This document shows positions 10,405 to 62,098 of a DNA stretch of 64,000 bases, one piece after another; position 1 is the stretch's first letter, and each line of letters starts with the position of its first letter. The stretch is from an uncultured Methanosarcinales archaeon (GTDB lineage Archaea > Nanobdellota > Nanobdellia > Woesearchaeales > CAXGTL01): positions 4,118 through 68,117 of the forward strand of contig CAZHVK010000007.1 in NCBI GenBank assembly GCA_964535955.1, given 5' to 3'. Both the position numbers and the translations under genes were made by a program. The notes under the pieces were generated by a model that saw only the letters and a list, made by a program, of their open reading frames with translations, searched no databases and was not told the origin of the DNA.

Positions 10405-10587
10405 ATTATATACTAAATCTTAAGATGTATTTATTTTTTGTGTTTTCAAGAAAAGTAGTAATTCTCGCTTTTTTTGATTAATTATGATGTTTTAAGTCTT
10501 ATTTAGCTAAGAAGAATTCAAAAAAAGCAAAGATATATAAATAAGTATCAATATGAATTAATCTGGATTAATAATTGTTTAAAATTA

Positions 10588-10652
10588 AAAATTTAGAGGT
10601 GAAAGGGATTGTAAACATTCTTTAACCTCAAAATCAAAATTTAGAGGTGAAA
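10588..10652 (+). promoter_or_regulatory. direct repeat AAAATTTAGAGGTGAAA x2 in the histone leader; second copy supplies the SD
   Basis: identical 17-mers at 10588 and 10636; second copy places GAGGTGA 7 nt before the ATG. Confidence 0.4.
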
Positions 10653-10657
10653 TAAAT

Positions 10658-10861
10658 ATGGCAAAAGCAATACCAGCAGCTCCTGCTGAAAGAATTCTTA
10701 AGAATGCTGGAGCAAAAAGAGTATCAGATCCTGCTAAAAAGGCACTTGCAGATGTATTAGAAGATATTGGATTACAAGTAGCTGAAAAAGCTGTTCAAAT
10801 AGCAAAGAATTGTGGTAGGAAAACTGTAACAGACGAAGACATTAAGATGGTAAGGTTGTAG
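10658..10861 (+). CDS. archaeal histone (HMf family)
   Basis: 67 aa; PIAP/RIIK-like N-terminus, GRKTV...EDI histone-fold signature typical of archaeal histones. Confidence 0.85.
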   Translation: MAKAIPAAPAERILKNAGAKRVSDPAKKALADVLEDIGLQVAEKAVQIAKNCGRKTVTDEDIKMVRL

Positions 10862-10877
10862 ATTTACATTAAAGGAG

Positions 10878-11112
10878 GTGGTCAATATCCAAATAACAAT
10901 AGATACAGCAAAAGATTCGCCAGAAGACAAACTCACTAACGTTCGTAGCCTTCAGGCTCATGCAAAGGGGTGGTCAATATCCAAATAACAATAGATACAG
11001 CAAAAGATTCGCCAGAAGACAAACTCACTAACGTTCGTAGCCTTCAGGCTCATGCAAAGGGGTGGTCAATATCCAAATAACAATAGATACAGCAAAAGAT
11101 TCGCCAGAAGAC
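10878..11112 (+). repeat. 92-bp tandem duplication (2 full copies plus 50 bp) spanning RBS, GTG start and first 17 codons of the downstream gene
   Basis: identical GTGGTCAATATCCAAATAACAATAGATACAGCAAAAGATTCGCCAGAAGAC at 10878, 10970 and 11062; first two followed by an identical 42-bp GC-richer segment containing the AGCCTTCAGGCT palindrome. Confidence 0.9.
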
Positions 11113-11361
11113 ATAAAAAAAGCAATAGAATTGCTTTCTTCTTTGACTAATTCTAGAGTTAGAAGTAATTCTGATTTATTTACTAATACTGAAACTGAAT
11201 CTTCTAGTTCTTCTTTTTCTAATACTACTTCTAGTTCCACTAACACACAAAGTAATAGTGGAGGGGTATTTAATATGTTTAATAATAATCCTAGTCAAGA
11301 AACAAAATCTCAGGAACAAGATGAACAAGAACCTTCTAAAGTTCAGGTATTAAAATATTAA
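11062..11361 (+). CDS. Ser/Thr/Asn-rich low-complexity protein
   Basis: 99-aa ORF with GTG start preceded by GGAGGT; 5' end is the third copy of the tandem repeat. Confidence 0.35.
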   Translation: MVNIQITIDTAKDSPEDIKKAIELLSSLTNSRVRSNSDLFTNTETESSSSSFSNTTSSSTNTQSNSGGVFNMFNNNPSQETKSQEQDEQEPSKVQVLKY

Positions 11362-16296: not shown

Positions 16297-16913
16297 ATCT
16301 CAATGATCTTCCCTTTCTTACCAACATTAATAACTTTAGTATTTCCAATCTTTTCTTCAATACCTTCTGCTTCATGTACATGTGAACAAAGTAATATGTT
16401 TGGTTTAAAAGTATCAATTGCTTTTTTAACAGCATCACTTGGTGGCACAAAATCTGATAATTGACCCATCAATGATTCAGAAGGATGCATATGTGTAACC
16501 ATTATCTTTTTTTGCAGACCTTTAATCTTTTCATGACCTTTATTTAATAAAGAAAACATTTCTTCTTCAGAAAATAGAGGTGCTGGTCCAACATTTGTTG
16601 CACCGCCTGCTCCAAATATACCTACATCATTTGCAGTGATTGCATAACCATGCAGGTTCTTTATTCCATATAACTCAGCTAAGAACCCGGTTGTAGCAAT
16701 TGATTCATGATTACCTGGTATAATAAACACTTTAAGATTATTCTCAACAAAAGGCTTTATCAAGTGCTGTGTTGACATGTCTGCAAATGTTATGTCACCG
16801 CATATGATGACATAGTCTACATTATTCTGAACAGCTTTTTCAGCTAATTCTTTTGCTAAATTTAGGTCGCCGTGTATGTCACCGGCTGCTAGTATTTTCA
16901 TGTTGGATTCCAC
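16293..16913 (-). CDS. calcineurin-like metallophosphoesterase (MJ0936/YfcE-like)
   Basis: GDIHGD, GDITF, GNHE, HVHE motifs in canonical order. Confidence 0.75.
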   Translation of the reverse strand: MESNMKILAAGDIHGDLNLAKELAEKAVQNNVDYVIICGDITFADMSTQHLIKPFVENNLKVFIIPGNHESIATTGFLAELYGIKNLHGYAITANDVGIFGAGGATNVGPAPLFSEEEMFSLLNKGHEKIKGLQKKIMVTHMHPSESLMGQLSDFVPPSDAVKKAIDTFKPNILLCSHVHEAEGIEEKIGNTKVINVGKKGKIIEI

Positions 16914-17013
16914 CTTTTATTATTAGCTTTCAACATGAAAGCTACGAACGATAGTGAGTATGTTTTCATTTTGTATCTTGGTATCCTACCTTATTTATAA
17001 ATTATGTGTTTAA

Positions 17014-55789: not shown

Positions 55790-56746
55790 TTATGTATCAG
55801 TTGTTTCTGATTTAGCAGTTTTATCTTCTTGCGCTTTGTTTTCTTTTGTTTTTGCTTCTTCTTTTTCTTCTGGTTTTTTACTTTGTTCTGTTTCTTTATT
55901 TACTTTTTCTTCTTCTTTTTTACTTTGTTCTGTTTCTTTATTTACTTTTTCTTCTGGTTTTTTACTTTGTTCTGTTTCTTTATTTACTTTTTCTTCTTCT
56001 TTTTTACTTTGTTCTGTTTCTTTATTTACTTTTTCTTCTTCTTTTTTACTTTCTTCTTTCACTTCTGTTTTCACTTCTTTCTTCTCTTGTTCTTCAACAA
56101 ACACAATTTTACTAATATCATCAATTAATCCCGTTAATTTGTCACTTATTTTATCTTTTGAGTCTTTTATTATATTAAAGTTTATTTTCTTGATAATAAC
56201 TTTTGCAGTACTATCTTTAATTTCAATTTTTTCAGGCTTAAAACCAAACTCTAACAAGATAAATGATTCAATTTTTTTAACATTGTCTGTGATTAATTTA
56301 TTAATCTTAACTATGTAAACAAGATCTTTACTAGACAAAGGATGGTTAAAATCAACAATAACCCTTCCACCTGTAACAGTTCTGATTACTCCAACAACTC
56401 CATCAATATTAACTTGTAAACCAGGCATTGGCTGAATATTTTGTTTTTTAAACACTCTAGTAGGAACTATTTTCAGAAGTTTTGCACTTTTCTTGCCAAA
56501 AGCTTGTTCAGCTTTTATATCAAATGTATATTCCTTATCAACTTCTTTACCTATTATTTGCTGATCTAAACCCTTGATCAACTGTCCTTGACCAACACAA
56601 ATAACAAGTGGCTGATATTTCATTTGTTCATTATAAATATTATTATCTTTTGCAGTTTTTTCATTTGTTGTATCAAATATTAGGTCCTCTTCTTTTGTTT
56701 TACCAGTATAATCAATTTCAATGAAATCCTTATCTTTTATTGTCAT
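55790..56746 (-). CDS. FKBP-type peptidyl-prolyl isomerase with C-terminal EEKVNKETEQSKK(P/E) tandem repeats
   Basis: N-terminal FKBP fold segments (DFIEIDYTG...; VIVDFNHPL), IF-like insert, 14-aa repeats x4.5. Confidence 0.65.
   Translation of the reverse strand: MTIKDKDFIEIDYTGKTKEEDLIFDTTNEKTAKDNNIYNEQMKYQPLVICVGQGQLIKGLDQQIIGKEVDKEYTFDIKAEQAFGKKSAKLLKIVPTRVFKKQNIQPMPGLQVNIDGVVGVIRTVTGGRVIVDFNHPLSSKDLVYIVKINKLITDNVKKIESFILLEFGFKPEKIEIKDSTAKVIIKKINFNIIKDSKDKISDKLTGLIDDISKIVFVEEQEKKEVKTEVKEESKKEEEKVNKETEQSKKEEEKVNKETEQSKKPEEKVNKETEQSKKEEEKVNKETEQSKKPEEKEEAKTKENKAQEDKTAKSETTDT
55871..56060. repeat. 42-bp tandem repeat x4.5 within the FKBP gene
   Basis: units TGG/TTC-TTTTTTACTTTGTTCTGTTTCTTTATTTACTTTTTCTTC on plus strand. 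Confidence 0.85.
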
Positions 56747-60596: not shown

Positions 60597-60629
60597 TTAG
60601 ATAAATATAAATGCCACAAAATCATTGCA

Positions 60630-60719
60630 TGGGTCTGGCCGGACTCGAACCGGCGATTAACGCCTATCTTTTCCTAATGGAATGTAAGGGCGCTGTCATA
60701 GCCACTAGACCACAAACCC
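60630..60719 (-). tRNA. tRNA-Val(UAC) with ~17-nt anticodon-loop intron
   Basis: reverse complement: GGGTTTG TG GTC-TAGTGGCTAT-GAC A GCGCC CTTACA[intron]A GGCGT TAAT GCCGG TTCGAGT CCGGC CAGACCC A. Confidence 0.7.
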
Positions 60720-60778
60720 AATTATATATAGAAAACAAACCACATATATAAAAAGGTTACTGTAAAAAGCTTTATATA

Positions 60779-61715: not shown

Positions 61716-61849
61716 GGGCCTGTAGCTTAGTCTGGTGGAGCGCCGGTCTTATATGGCAGTGTTCCCAACAACTGGCTTAAGTTAGCCGGTGGTCGTGCGA
61801 GGATAACATTATCAGTGTTGTTCCACGAATTCAAATCGCGCCAGGCCCA
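61716..61849 (+). tRNA. tRNA-Ile(UAU) candidate with two 30-nt introns (anticodon loop 37/38 and T-arm)
   Basis: acceptor GGGCCTG/CAGGCCC, D-arm GCTT..GAGC, anticodon stem CCGGT/GCCGG, loop CTTATA|intron|A with BHB pairing CTTA/TAAG; T-stem GTGCG [30-nt insert] TTCAAAT CGCGC. Confidence 0.5.
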
Positions 61850-61953
61850 TTTTTTTTAAGAAACATCAAAAATACAGAGTATTTTTGTGGCTTTGAAATT
61901 CCATAAGAATTTCAAAAGGTTTTTAAACAAATATCAAATAATTTAAATATACT

Positions 61954-62028
61954 GCCCCGTTGGTGTAGTCCGGCCAATCATCTTGCCCTTTCGAGGCAAG
62001 GACTCGGGTTCAAATCCCGGACGGGGCA
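61954..62028 (+). tRNA. tRNA-Glu(UUC), intronless
   Basis: GCCCCGT TG GTG-TAGTCCGGCCAAT-CAT C TTGCC CTTTCGA GGCAA GGAC TCGGG TTCAAAT CCCGG ACGGGGC A. Confidence 0.8.
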
Positions 62029-62098
62029 TTTATTATTCTCAATCATAGATAACTTTTTAAGTGCAATACGAATTCTCAGTTTATTAAAACAAAAATAG

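Follow-up and report, generated by a model that had tools for sequence, protein, structure and literature searches.

Erm-type and attenuator leaders carry uORFs for leader peptides, with sequestration of the SD, and initiation at the non-AUG codons AUU and AUC is known from bacterial infC. Degenerate start triplets have been described (PMC5499595). For termination-reinitiation, overlaps or very short distances between ORFs are needed, with a strong distance dependence where there is a gap (PMC6728339, PMC10666635), and in microhomology-mediated tandem duplication the junction is expected to lie on a short direct repeat (PMC8639346; bioRxiv 10.64898/2026.02.28.708716). The locus described here, a short array at the 5' end of a small archaeal gene, can be set beside each of these systems.

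The array lies in the window (the whole stretch of 64,000 nucleotides that was analysed), which belongs to the core chromosome of an AT-rich archaeon. Archease and RtcB genes are found near the histone gene that precedes the array; other genes of the window encode MutS, MutL, PolB, split RNA polymerase subunits, NusA, S12, S7, Spt5, FtsZ and ScpA, and intron-containing tRNA genes are present as well. The preliminary description had reported a 92-bp tandem duplication, and this is borne out by an exact array with a constant period of 92: positions 10877-11021 are identical to 10969-11113 over 145 consecutive positions with 0 mismatches, and the whole array (10877-11113, 237 bp) comprises 2.58 copies of the 92-bp unit, head to tail. 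TRF called the same array (score 477), and an independent repeat search agreed. The layout is A1-B1-A2-B2-A3 (Table 1), where A has 53 bp and a GC content of 38% and B has 39 bp and a GC content of 49%, the window average being about 30%. Even when as many as 3 mismatches were tolerated, B was found at no other place in the window (expected number 0).

Some details of the first account had to be revised. The segment between the copies had been given as 42 bp of GC-richer sequence; it is GC-richer, and it measures 39 bp if the bases common to both parts are counted with A. It is not an anonymous filler, being the conserved native leader of the gene, as set out below. The sequence GGAGGT, which had been assigned to all three copies, is found in copy 1 only, as part of a perfect SD (GGAGGTG, 10874-10880) to which the spacer upstream of the array contributes the first bases; since it is the end of B that precedes copies 2 and 3, the motif there reads GGGGTG. 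The two 36-codon ORFs (10878-10988 and 10970-11080) do encode an identical peptide, and only the third copy leads into the ORF of 99 aa (11062-11361).

Table 1. Features of the array, its flanks and the paralogous leader (positions are those of the window).
Feature	Position	Strand	Description
Archaeal histone gene, 67 aa	10658-10861	+	Pfam Histone/CBFD_NFYB_HMF; immediately upstream of the array
Spacer 'up'	10862-10876	+	ATTTACATTAAAGGA; between histone stop and copy 1; 15 nt
A1	10877-10929	+	SD end, 6-nt spacer, ATC 10887-10889, codons 2-14 (QITIDTAKDSPED); called GTG 10878
B1	10930-10968	+	native-leader copy: core ACTCACTAACGTTCGTAGCCTTCA, mini-hairpin AGCC-TTCA-GGCT, CATGCAAAGG into SD
A2	10969-11021	+	identical to A1; SD GGGGTG 10967-10972, GTG 10970, ATC 10979-10981
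B2	11022-11060	+	identical to B1; missing from the 2-copy contig L007
A3	11061-11113	+	copy running on into the intact gene; A-to-downstream junction ancestral (as in L008, L025, L026)
Pseudo-start ORF 1	10878-10988	+	36 codons from GTG, 33 from ATC; A1 in gene frame, then B1
Pseudo-start ORF 2	10970-11080	+	peptide identical to that of ORF 1; stop 11078-11080, 10 nt into the real ORF from ATC3
Small conserved gene	11071-11361	+	96 aa from ATC; 99 aa if from GTG 11062
Paralogous type-2 leader (locus 2)	16898-16978	-	before metallophosphoesterase gene; about 6 kb from the array

The ORF into which the array leads was compared with archived proteins. A word-indexed search returned homologues (P0001-P0005) with the invariant N-terminus I-T-I-D-T-x-x-D-S-x-x-x-I-x-K-A-I-E-L-L, and a full profile search retrieved 806 cluster representatives at E<=1e-3, with lengths of 75-120 aa, nearly all of which match from residue 1. 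The family consensus is MKITIDTKxDSxEEIxKAIxLLxSL...GGxFNMF...Y. Searches of Pfam, NCBIfam and the PDB with the product gave no match. In the AF2 model (mean pLDDT 66) an extended segment or strand at the N-terminus is followed by a helix of residues 12-27 and then by a disordered tail; the tail of the predicted protein is rich in Ser, Thr and Asn, with the motif GGVFNMF and a C-terminal Y. Judged by this conservation, the 99-aa ORF is a real gene, a member of a widespread family of small archaeal proteins. The small gene directly follows the histone gene in four genomes, namely that of the window, L008, L025 and L026. In L008 an ATG start lies 1 nt past the histone stop (TGAAATG), and from codon 2 onward the gene aligns with A3 and the sequence downstream of it; the junction between A3 and the downstream sequence is therefore ancestral.

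The position of the family Met aligns with an ATC in each A copy (10887, 10979 and 11071), which stands 6 nt after the SD, and the called GTG consists of the last three bases of the SD motif. The reading of each copy as an RBS plus a GTG start therefore fails, because this GTG overlaps the SD whereas the SD-led genes of the window start 4-10 nt past it (from the G of GGAGGTG). Four family members that are apparently N-terminally extended (P0008, P0016, P0052 and P0059) have an Ile exactly at the position of the Met of the others. In the DNA of L025 the order is AGAGGTG, 6 nt, ATT, and in that of L028 it is AGGTGAT, 5 nt, ATC, which brings to three the lineages that have an Ile codon at the family start and an SD 5-6 nt upstream of it (ATC in the window, ATT in L025, ATC in L028). 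Gene callers took an upstream GTG, ATG or TTG as the start in the Ile-codon lineages. From these alignments we infer that several lineages probably use a near-cognate AUY codon to initiate this gene, and that the ORF called for it there probably extends too far upstream.

A counterpart of B was found in L025 (Logan SRR19040528), which has a single copy. Its histone stop is followed by 18 nt, ATG-CAA-ACT-T, ACTCACTATCGTTCGAGGCCTTCTGGCTCATGCAAAGAGGTGG, ACACA and then ATT-AAA-ATC-ACT-ATA-GAT, and over 43 positions that cover B and the beginning of A this leader agrees at 38, without an indel. A short-word search of B against the window and the relatives gave one non-self match, on the minus strand of the window (16967-16936), where GAAAACATACTCACTATCGTTCGTAGCTTTCA aligns with GAAGACAAACTCACTAACGTTCGTAGCCTTCA at 10923-10954 with 28 of 32 positions identical. 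The local score of this match is 44 (maximum in shuffled sequence 28), its nhmmer E-value is about 1e-7 and the expectation for a degenerate 24-mer is 0. The similarity spans the A|B boundary (GAAGACAAACTCAC versus GAAAACATACTCAC); past the 32-nt core it is not significant by itself (p 0.09 and 0.39). The match belongs to the 100-nt leader of a metallophosphoesterase gene (locus 2), which comprises an ATG-uORF, MKTYSLSFVAFMLKANNKRWNPT (16969-16898), the core (16967-16936), a 9-bp hairpin and the SD AAAAGGTGG; the stop of the uORF overlaps the ATG of the gene (ATGA). A leader of the locus-2 type is also found in L027, directly before another member of the small protein family.

When the four leaders were aligned, the mean column identity was 77%, and the codons ATG, ATG, ATT and ATC shared one column. 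Because the L025 and L027 leaders and the four-way alignment match, B is identified with the distal two-thirds of a conserved leader that is native to this gene, and the B-to-A junction is native too. A short ATG-uORF, M[KQ]TYSLSF[VE]AF[MW]L, is common to L025, L027 and locus 2, and in L025 its stop overlaps the ATT start as ATTAA. In the window the uORF of the native leader is dead: it has no ATG, and the overlapping stop is lost (CAA-TAT-CCA versus CAC-AAT-TAA in L025). The type-2 leaders (L027 and locus 2) share a hairpin with one compensatory change and have a CUCACU stretch for which pairing with the SD is predicted. The fold statistics of the leaders are weak (z -2.7, -1.1, +0.2 and -0.5), and RNAalifold gave no consensus structure for them. 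A search with P0008 for relatives that have the leader-encoded extension returned P0008 itself only.

We now turn to the way in which this single leader and gene start came to be repeated. The array probably originated as a young tandem duplication, by microhomology or slippage, of the 5' control region and the first codons, followed by expansion and contraction. The unit, B followed by A, consists of contiguous resident sequence, L025 having both native junctions, and by this comparison only the A-to-B junction is new, those from B to A and from A to the downstream sequence being native. The A|B junction sits at the position of the uORF ATG (CAG-AAG-ACA-AAC in the window versus ATG-AAA-ACA-TAC in the other leaders). 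The GAAGACA at the end of each A agrees at 6 of 7 positions with the GAAAACA that the paralogous leaders have where their uORF begins, a microhomology inferred from these paralogs and not from the ancestral sequence of the window lineage. Replication slippage, template switching or unequal exchange at GAAGACA/GAAAACA could have created the A-to-B junction. Homologous or slipped-strand exchange, at first between two 53-bp A copies and later between 145-bp A-B-A blocks, would then gain or lose 92-bp units, and such exchange through the repeats may account for two copies in one assembly and three in another. The last copy would be the working gene, and the upstream copies decapitated duplicates with an SD and a start of their own.

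Comparison with related genomes, which the preliminary description had proposed, showed one copy only in L008, L025 and L026, and no array was seen in these or in L027 and L028; the databases searched contained no closer relatives than these. A single duplication in an L025-like ancestor (histone-s-uORF-B-A-gene) predicts s, the uORF ATG and B before the first A. Copy 1 is preceded instead by the 15-nt spacer, and since s-uORF-B is missing there, at least one further event is needed. This could have been a deletion of about 45 nt of the leader, or recombination between leader-less and leader-bearing alleles at GAAGACA/GAAAACA. The spacer is similar to the 3' end of B (CATTAAAGGAGGTGG versus CATGCAAAGGGGTGG) and looks like the 3' end of the leader after such a deletion of about 45 nt; recombination of a leader-less with a leader-bearing allele in one step is a plausible alternative. 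In the histone sequences the window groups with L008, and L025 with L026; as L008 and L026 are both without the leader, it has, judged by this grouping, been lost repeatedly.

The 3' end of the histone gene itself contains a GAAGACA (10835-10841), 88 nt before that of A1, and the 35 nt between the histone GAAGACA and A1 are weakly similar to B. The idea that B is a diverged histone 3' end plus spacer is weakly supported by alignment (global p ~0.01, local p ~0.04).

The number of copies was followed across records of the same strain, retrieved by exact-protein look-up, the window being ENA ERZ23499079 scaffold_371. The window reads up-A-B-A-B-A-down and the JGI 3300009374 contig Ga0118720_1000331 (L007, 77 kb) reads up-A-B-A-down, and the flanks of the two match at 100% for 3219 nt on the upstream side and for 2748 nt on the downstream side. 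A 1-nt indel that seemed to separate them was discarded as the effect of BLAST aligning across the repeat, the 2748 nt downstream being identical. Six short records begin inside the array: in four the first base is base 7 of an A, after which B-A-down follows; the fifth has the order GG-A-B-A-down; and the sixth (L004) has GG-A-B-A-B-A-down, an order that requires either a fourth copy or the unrolling of a graph loop. Some of the ENA and JGI records are evidently one assembly (both 1004 nt), so there are fewer independent assemblies than records. Since every record contains A-B-A, the duplication itself is real and not an artefact; B-A-B was seen in at least two of the records, the window and L004.

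The three copies first described thus hold for the window, and the same-strain JGI contig with identical flanks has two. Of the explanations then offered, namely recent slippage, an assembly artefact or copy-number variation, a very recent event agrees with the 0 mismatches and an artefact can be set aside for A-B-A; for the third copy the differing counts and the contig breaks leave room both for slippage or copy-number variation and for assembly ambiguity, and the 2-copy contig may in its turn be a collapsed version of a longer array. The figure of three is not secure, as it may be a minimum or the assembler's choice, and the number is either unstable or not resolved by assembly. Judged from the assemblies, a real polymorphism of two versus three or more copies is likely.

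The strongest competing account concerns this third copy. The genome may contain A-B-A only, the additional B-A and the broken contigs being products of a loop or a mis-resolution in the de Bruijn graph. The 77-kb contig with A-B-A between identical flanks agrees with this, as do the length of the array, which at 237 bp exceeds any short-read k-mer, and the six records that start within it, among which L004 may be an unrolled loop. However, A-B-A alone repeats only 53 bp and would be resolved with k above ~55, so that neither the breaks nor B-A-B should arise, and the B-A-B path occurs in two separate records. We regard an artefactual third copy as unlikely, although its chance is appreciable.

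The sequence of B could also have been copied from an ectopic donor. A template switch at GAAGACA to a paralogous leader (e.g. 16936-16967 on the minus strand), and back at the SD, would yield A-B-A in one event of two jumps, and would explain in one step why 'up-A' comes first instead of 's-uORF-B'. A paralogous leader does exist 6 kb away, its similarity crosses the A|B boundary, and both ends of B have short matches to the recipient. B is, however, much nearer to the L025 ortholog (38/43, with the same 10-nt gap) than to the paralog in the genome, which has 4 differences in the 32-nt core and a 10-nt indel, and B therefore looks resident at the locus. Since, in addition, scans of the window, the relatives, GTDB, IMG/VR and JGI did not find an identical donor, this origin is improbable.

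Other origins of B or of the array were considered and rejected. A foreign B was suggested by one GTDB match of a B 20-mer, which showed no extension past 20 nt and was ascribed to chance. Neither the B 20-mer nor the leader core was found in IMG/VR; the JGI metagenome contigs had no match to the B 20-mer and none to an A 24-mer either, so the samples evidently lie outside that collection. B is not a mosaic of nearby sequence, its k-mers being no commoner in the window than those of shuffled sequence. A structured RNA, an intron or a BHB element is not indicated by the folding scores against shuffles (z +0.86 for the array and -0.42 for B) or by inverted repeats, of which there are none, and an Rfam search returned nothing at gathering or E-value thresholds. 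A structured cis-regulatory RNA such as a riboswitch-like leader is likewise not indicated, the compensatory pair in the type-2 hairpin being the one sign in its favour.

The young tandem duplication would have consequences for translation that raise the matter of function. From the histone stop the order is 16-25 nt, ORF 1, an overlap, ORF 2, an overlap and the gene, and the TAA of each upstream ORF falls inside the following ORF, 10 nt past its ATC or 19 nt past its GTG (that of ORF 1, 10986-10988, is within A2). With an SD and a start of their own, in-frame reading through B and a TAA past the next ATC, the upstream copies are thus putative short overlapping uORFs; their 36-aa peptide is not on record as a called gene product. 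They could hand ribosomes on by termination-reinitiation or could attenuate the flow, as the tight coupling in relatives and the distance dependence cited above would allow. The gene is not disrupted, because however many units there are, the final one retains an SD, a start and the intact ORF. For the same reason a phase-variable contingency locus was rejected: the unit number never changes the frame or the start of the gene.

The preliminary description had considered a copy-number-variable regulatory leader, but no observation identifies the array as a regulatory device. A selected translational relay would be one such device, in which each unit adds a hand-over from uORF to start and the small protein is tuned through the copy number, its weak AUC being dependent on the hand-over. 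Relatives are indeed tightly coupled (the 1-nt gap of TGAAATG in L008, ATTAA in L025), as is locus 2 (ATGA), the pseudo-ORFs stop 10 nt into the next ORF, and the copy number differs between assemblies. Yet no relative has such an array, the copies are identical and so have had no time for visible selection, expression does not require the upstream copies because the last copy has its own SD, and a mutational accident fits the structure equally well. We give this proposal little credence. Slightly less still attaches to the idea that the chain of mini-ORFs relays ribosomes from the histone gene to the AUC-start gene, gain and loss of units acting as a heritable and reversible rheostat of the ratio of small protein to histone that would replace the ancestral coupling through the leader uORF.

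The weakest reading, that of a small CRISPR-like ('neo-CRISPR') array or of a trace left by a mobile element, with A as repeat or target-site duplication and B as captured foreign DNA, has in its favour a repeat-spacer-repeat spacing of 53 and 39 bp and a B of 39 bp with 49% GC against ~30%, and is refuted by the orthologous single-copy leader in L025; it is highly improbable also in that both 'spacers' are identical, the repeat is the coding N-terminus of the family in genomes without the repeat, the 'spacer' is a native leader that is conserved in single copy in relatives, the 64-kb window has no Cas, integrase or transposase genes, inverted repeats and a significant fold are absent, and searches of viral and genomic sequences gave no source for B. 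A mobile insertion with a TSD was rejected on the same grounds, B being a resident leader and the window having no inverted repeats, transposase or integrase; a target-site duplication of 53 bp would, to our knowledge, lie far beyond known TSD sizes.

What the locus teaches is in part a caution, in that a short-read metagenome assembly is not to be relied on for the copy number of the array. It is also a case study of how a gene start can be duplicated harmlessly, since no unit lacks an SD and a start. Three by-products of the analysis reach further: a large unannotated family of ~90-aa archaeal proteins, often encoded right after a histone gene; a conserved leader of ~65 nt with a short uORF whose stop overlaps the gene start; and the recurrence of ATC or ATT at the start position, which would lead gene callers to wrong upstream starts. 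The leader and the AUY start codons are more interesting than the duplication itself.

Set beside the described systems, the AUY start resembles the non-AUG start of infC in that an Ile codon stands exactly at the start position, with a well-placed SD, in three lineages; infC is bacterial, whereas the genes here are archaeal and their AUY initiation is predicted from sequence. The conserved leader resembles erm-type and attenuator leaders in its short ORF, its central hairpin and the predicted pairing with the SD, and differs from them in its weak fold, in the lack of an ATG in the uORF of the window array and in having no known ligand or stalling signal. As in termination-reinitiation pairs, each upstream ORF of the array stops just inside the next, and the classic geometries occur in the relatives (an ATGA or ATTAA overlap, or a gap of 1 nt behind the histone gene); the array overlaps measure 10 nt when counted from ATC and 19 nt when counted from GTG, not 1 or 4 nt, and its upstream ORFs are by-products of duplication and not genes. 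With VNTRs and microhomology-mediated duplications the array shares identical head-to-tail units, a new junction on a putative imperfect direct repeat, a unit number that differs between assemblies and a change that is reversible in principle; it differs in that its minimal state, A-B-A (1.58 units) behind a different short spacer, is unreachable by one duplication of an L025-like ancestor. In kind the event is ordinary, a further young tandem duplication affecting the 5' end of a gene, and we regard the array as a neutral or mildly modulating structural polymorphism and not as a dedicated device.

The small protein encoded at window 11071–11361 belongs to a large, unannotated archaeal family of proteins of about 90 residues, comprising 806 representatives at E<=1e-3 (relatives P0002–P0154 among them) and matched by no entry of Pfam, NCBIfam or the PDB. 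The family's N-terminus is invariant (ITIDT..DS...I.KAI.LL) and is followed by a Ser-rich, disordered central region; the motif GGVFNMF and a Y at the C-terminus complete the pattern. The AF2 model contains only an N-terminal strand and a helix (12–27). In four genomes the gene is directly preceded by a histone gene.

At the family start position, where other members have Met, an Ile codon is found in three lineages, with a well-placed Shine-Dalgarno site (SD) 5–6 nt upstream. Gene callers chose an unrelated upstream GTG, ATG or TTG, thereby extending the ORF, as in the homologues P0008, P0016, P0052 and P0059, which carry Ile in place of Met at this position. These observations suggest recurrent near-cognate initiation at AUY (AUU/AUC) codons in this family.

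Coordinates of features in the window and in contigs of relatives (L025, L027, L028)
Feature	Sequence	Position (strand)	Codon
Ile at family start position	window	10887, 10979, 11071	ATC
Ile at family start position	L025	~327	ATT
Ile at family start position	L028	~834	ATC
Leader copy	window	16898–16978 (-)	
Leader copy	L025	262–330	
Leader copy	L027	270–340	
Leader copies	window	10930–10968, 11022–11060	
Histone-leader direct repeat	window	10582–10604, 10630–10652	
Clustered tRNA genes	window	60629–60720 (-), 61716–61849 (+), 61953–62029 (+)	

The conserved leader that precedes some family members is about 65 nt long and matched no Rfam family. Within it, an ATG-uORF, the invariant core ACTCACTAWCGTTCG, a hairpin and the SD follow one another. 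The uORF peptide reads M[KQ]TYSLSF[VE]AF[MW]L... Three leaders carry this uORF, and in two of them its stop codon overlaps the start codon of the main ORF (ATTAA, ATGA).

In the window this leader, in its paralogous type-2 form, also precedes a metallophosphoesterase gene. This arrangement is confined to the window lineage (window 16901 (-) versus 16832 (-) in the relative L017, where the metallophosphoesterase gene abuts its upstream gene). Because the phosphoesterase gene and the genes of the small-protein family alike begin with ATGAARATA (proteins MKIL... and MKIT..., respectively), the leader may be the remnant of a deleted small-gene paralogue.

The histone gene's own leader contains another direct repeat that includes an SD (AAAAT[TC]AAAATTTAGAGGTGAAA; 23 nt, 91%, 48 nt apart). 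This leader exceeds its counterpart in the relative L008, where there is one SD, by about 70 nt. The window lineage may habitually duplicate leader regions. GAAGACA occurs at 10835–10841, within the last codons of the histone gene, and again at 10923–10929, 11015–11021 and 11107–11113 (spacings of 88, 92 and 92 nt). The 35 nt between its first occurrence and A1, the first 53-bp unit of the array, are weakly similar to the 39-bp native leader unit B (p about 0.01). This recurrence and the B-like segment may reflect chance or the trace of an older duplication round.

Elsewhere in the window, an FKBP-type isomerase ORF (55790–56746, minus strand) contains a 42-bp tandem repeat (55861–56057; 4.7 copies, 95% matches), whose period, a multiple of three, keeps the reading frame. 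The window lacks the LAGLIDADG homing-endonuclease-like gene that the relative has between the archease cluster and RtcB (L008 6327–7148 / L017 12288–13109). ARAGORN called two tRNA-Glu(TTC) genes and missed a 134-nt tRNA that Rfam detected. Lengths of 90 and 134 nt, unusual for tRNA genes, suggest introns in two of the three clustered ones.
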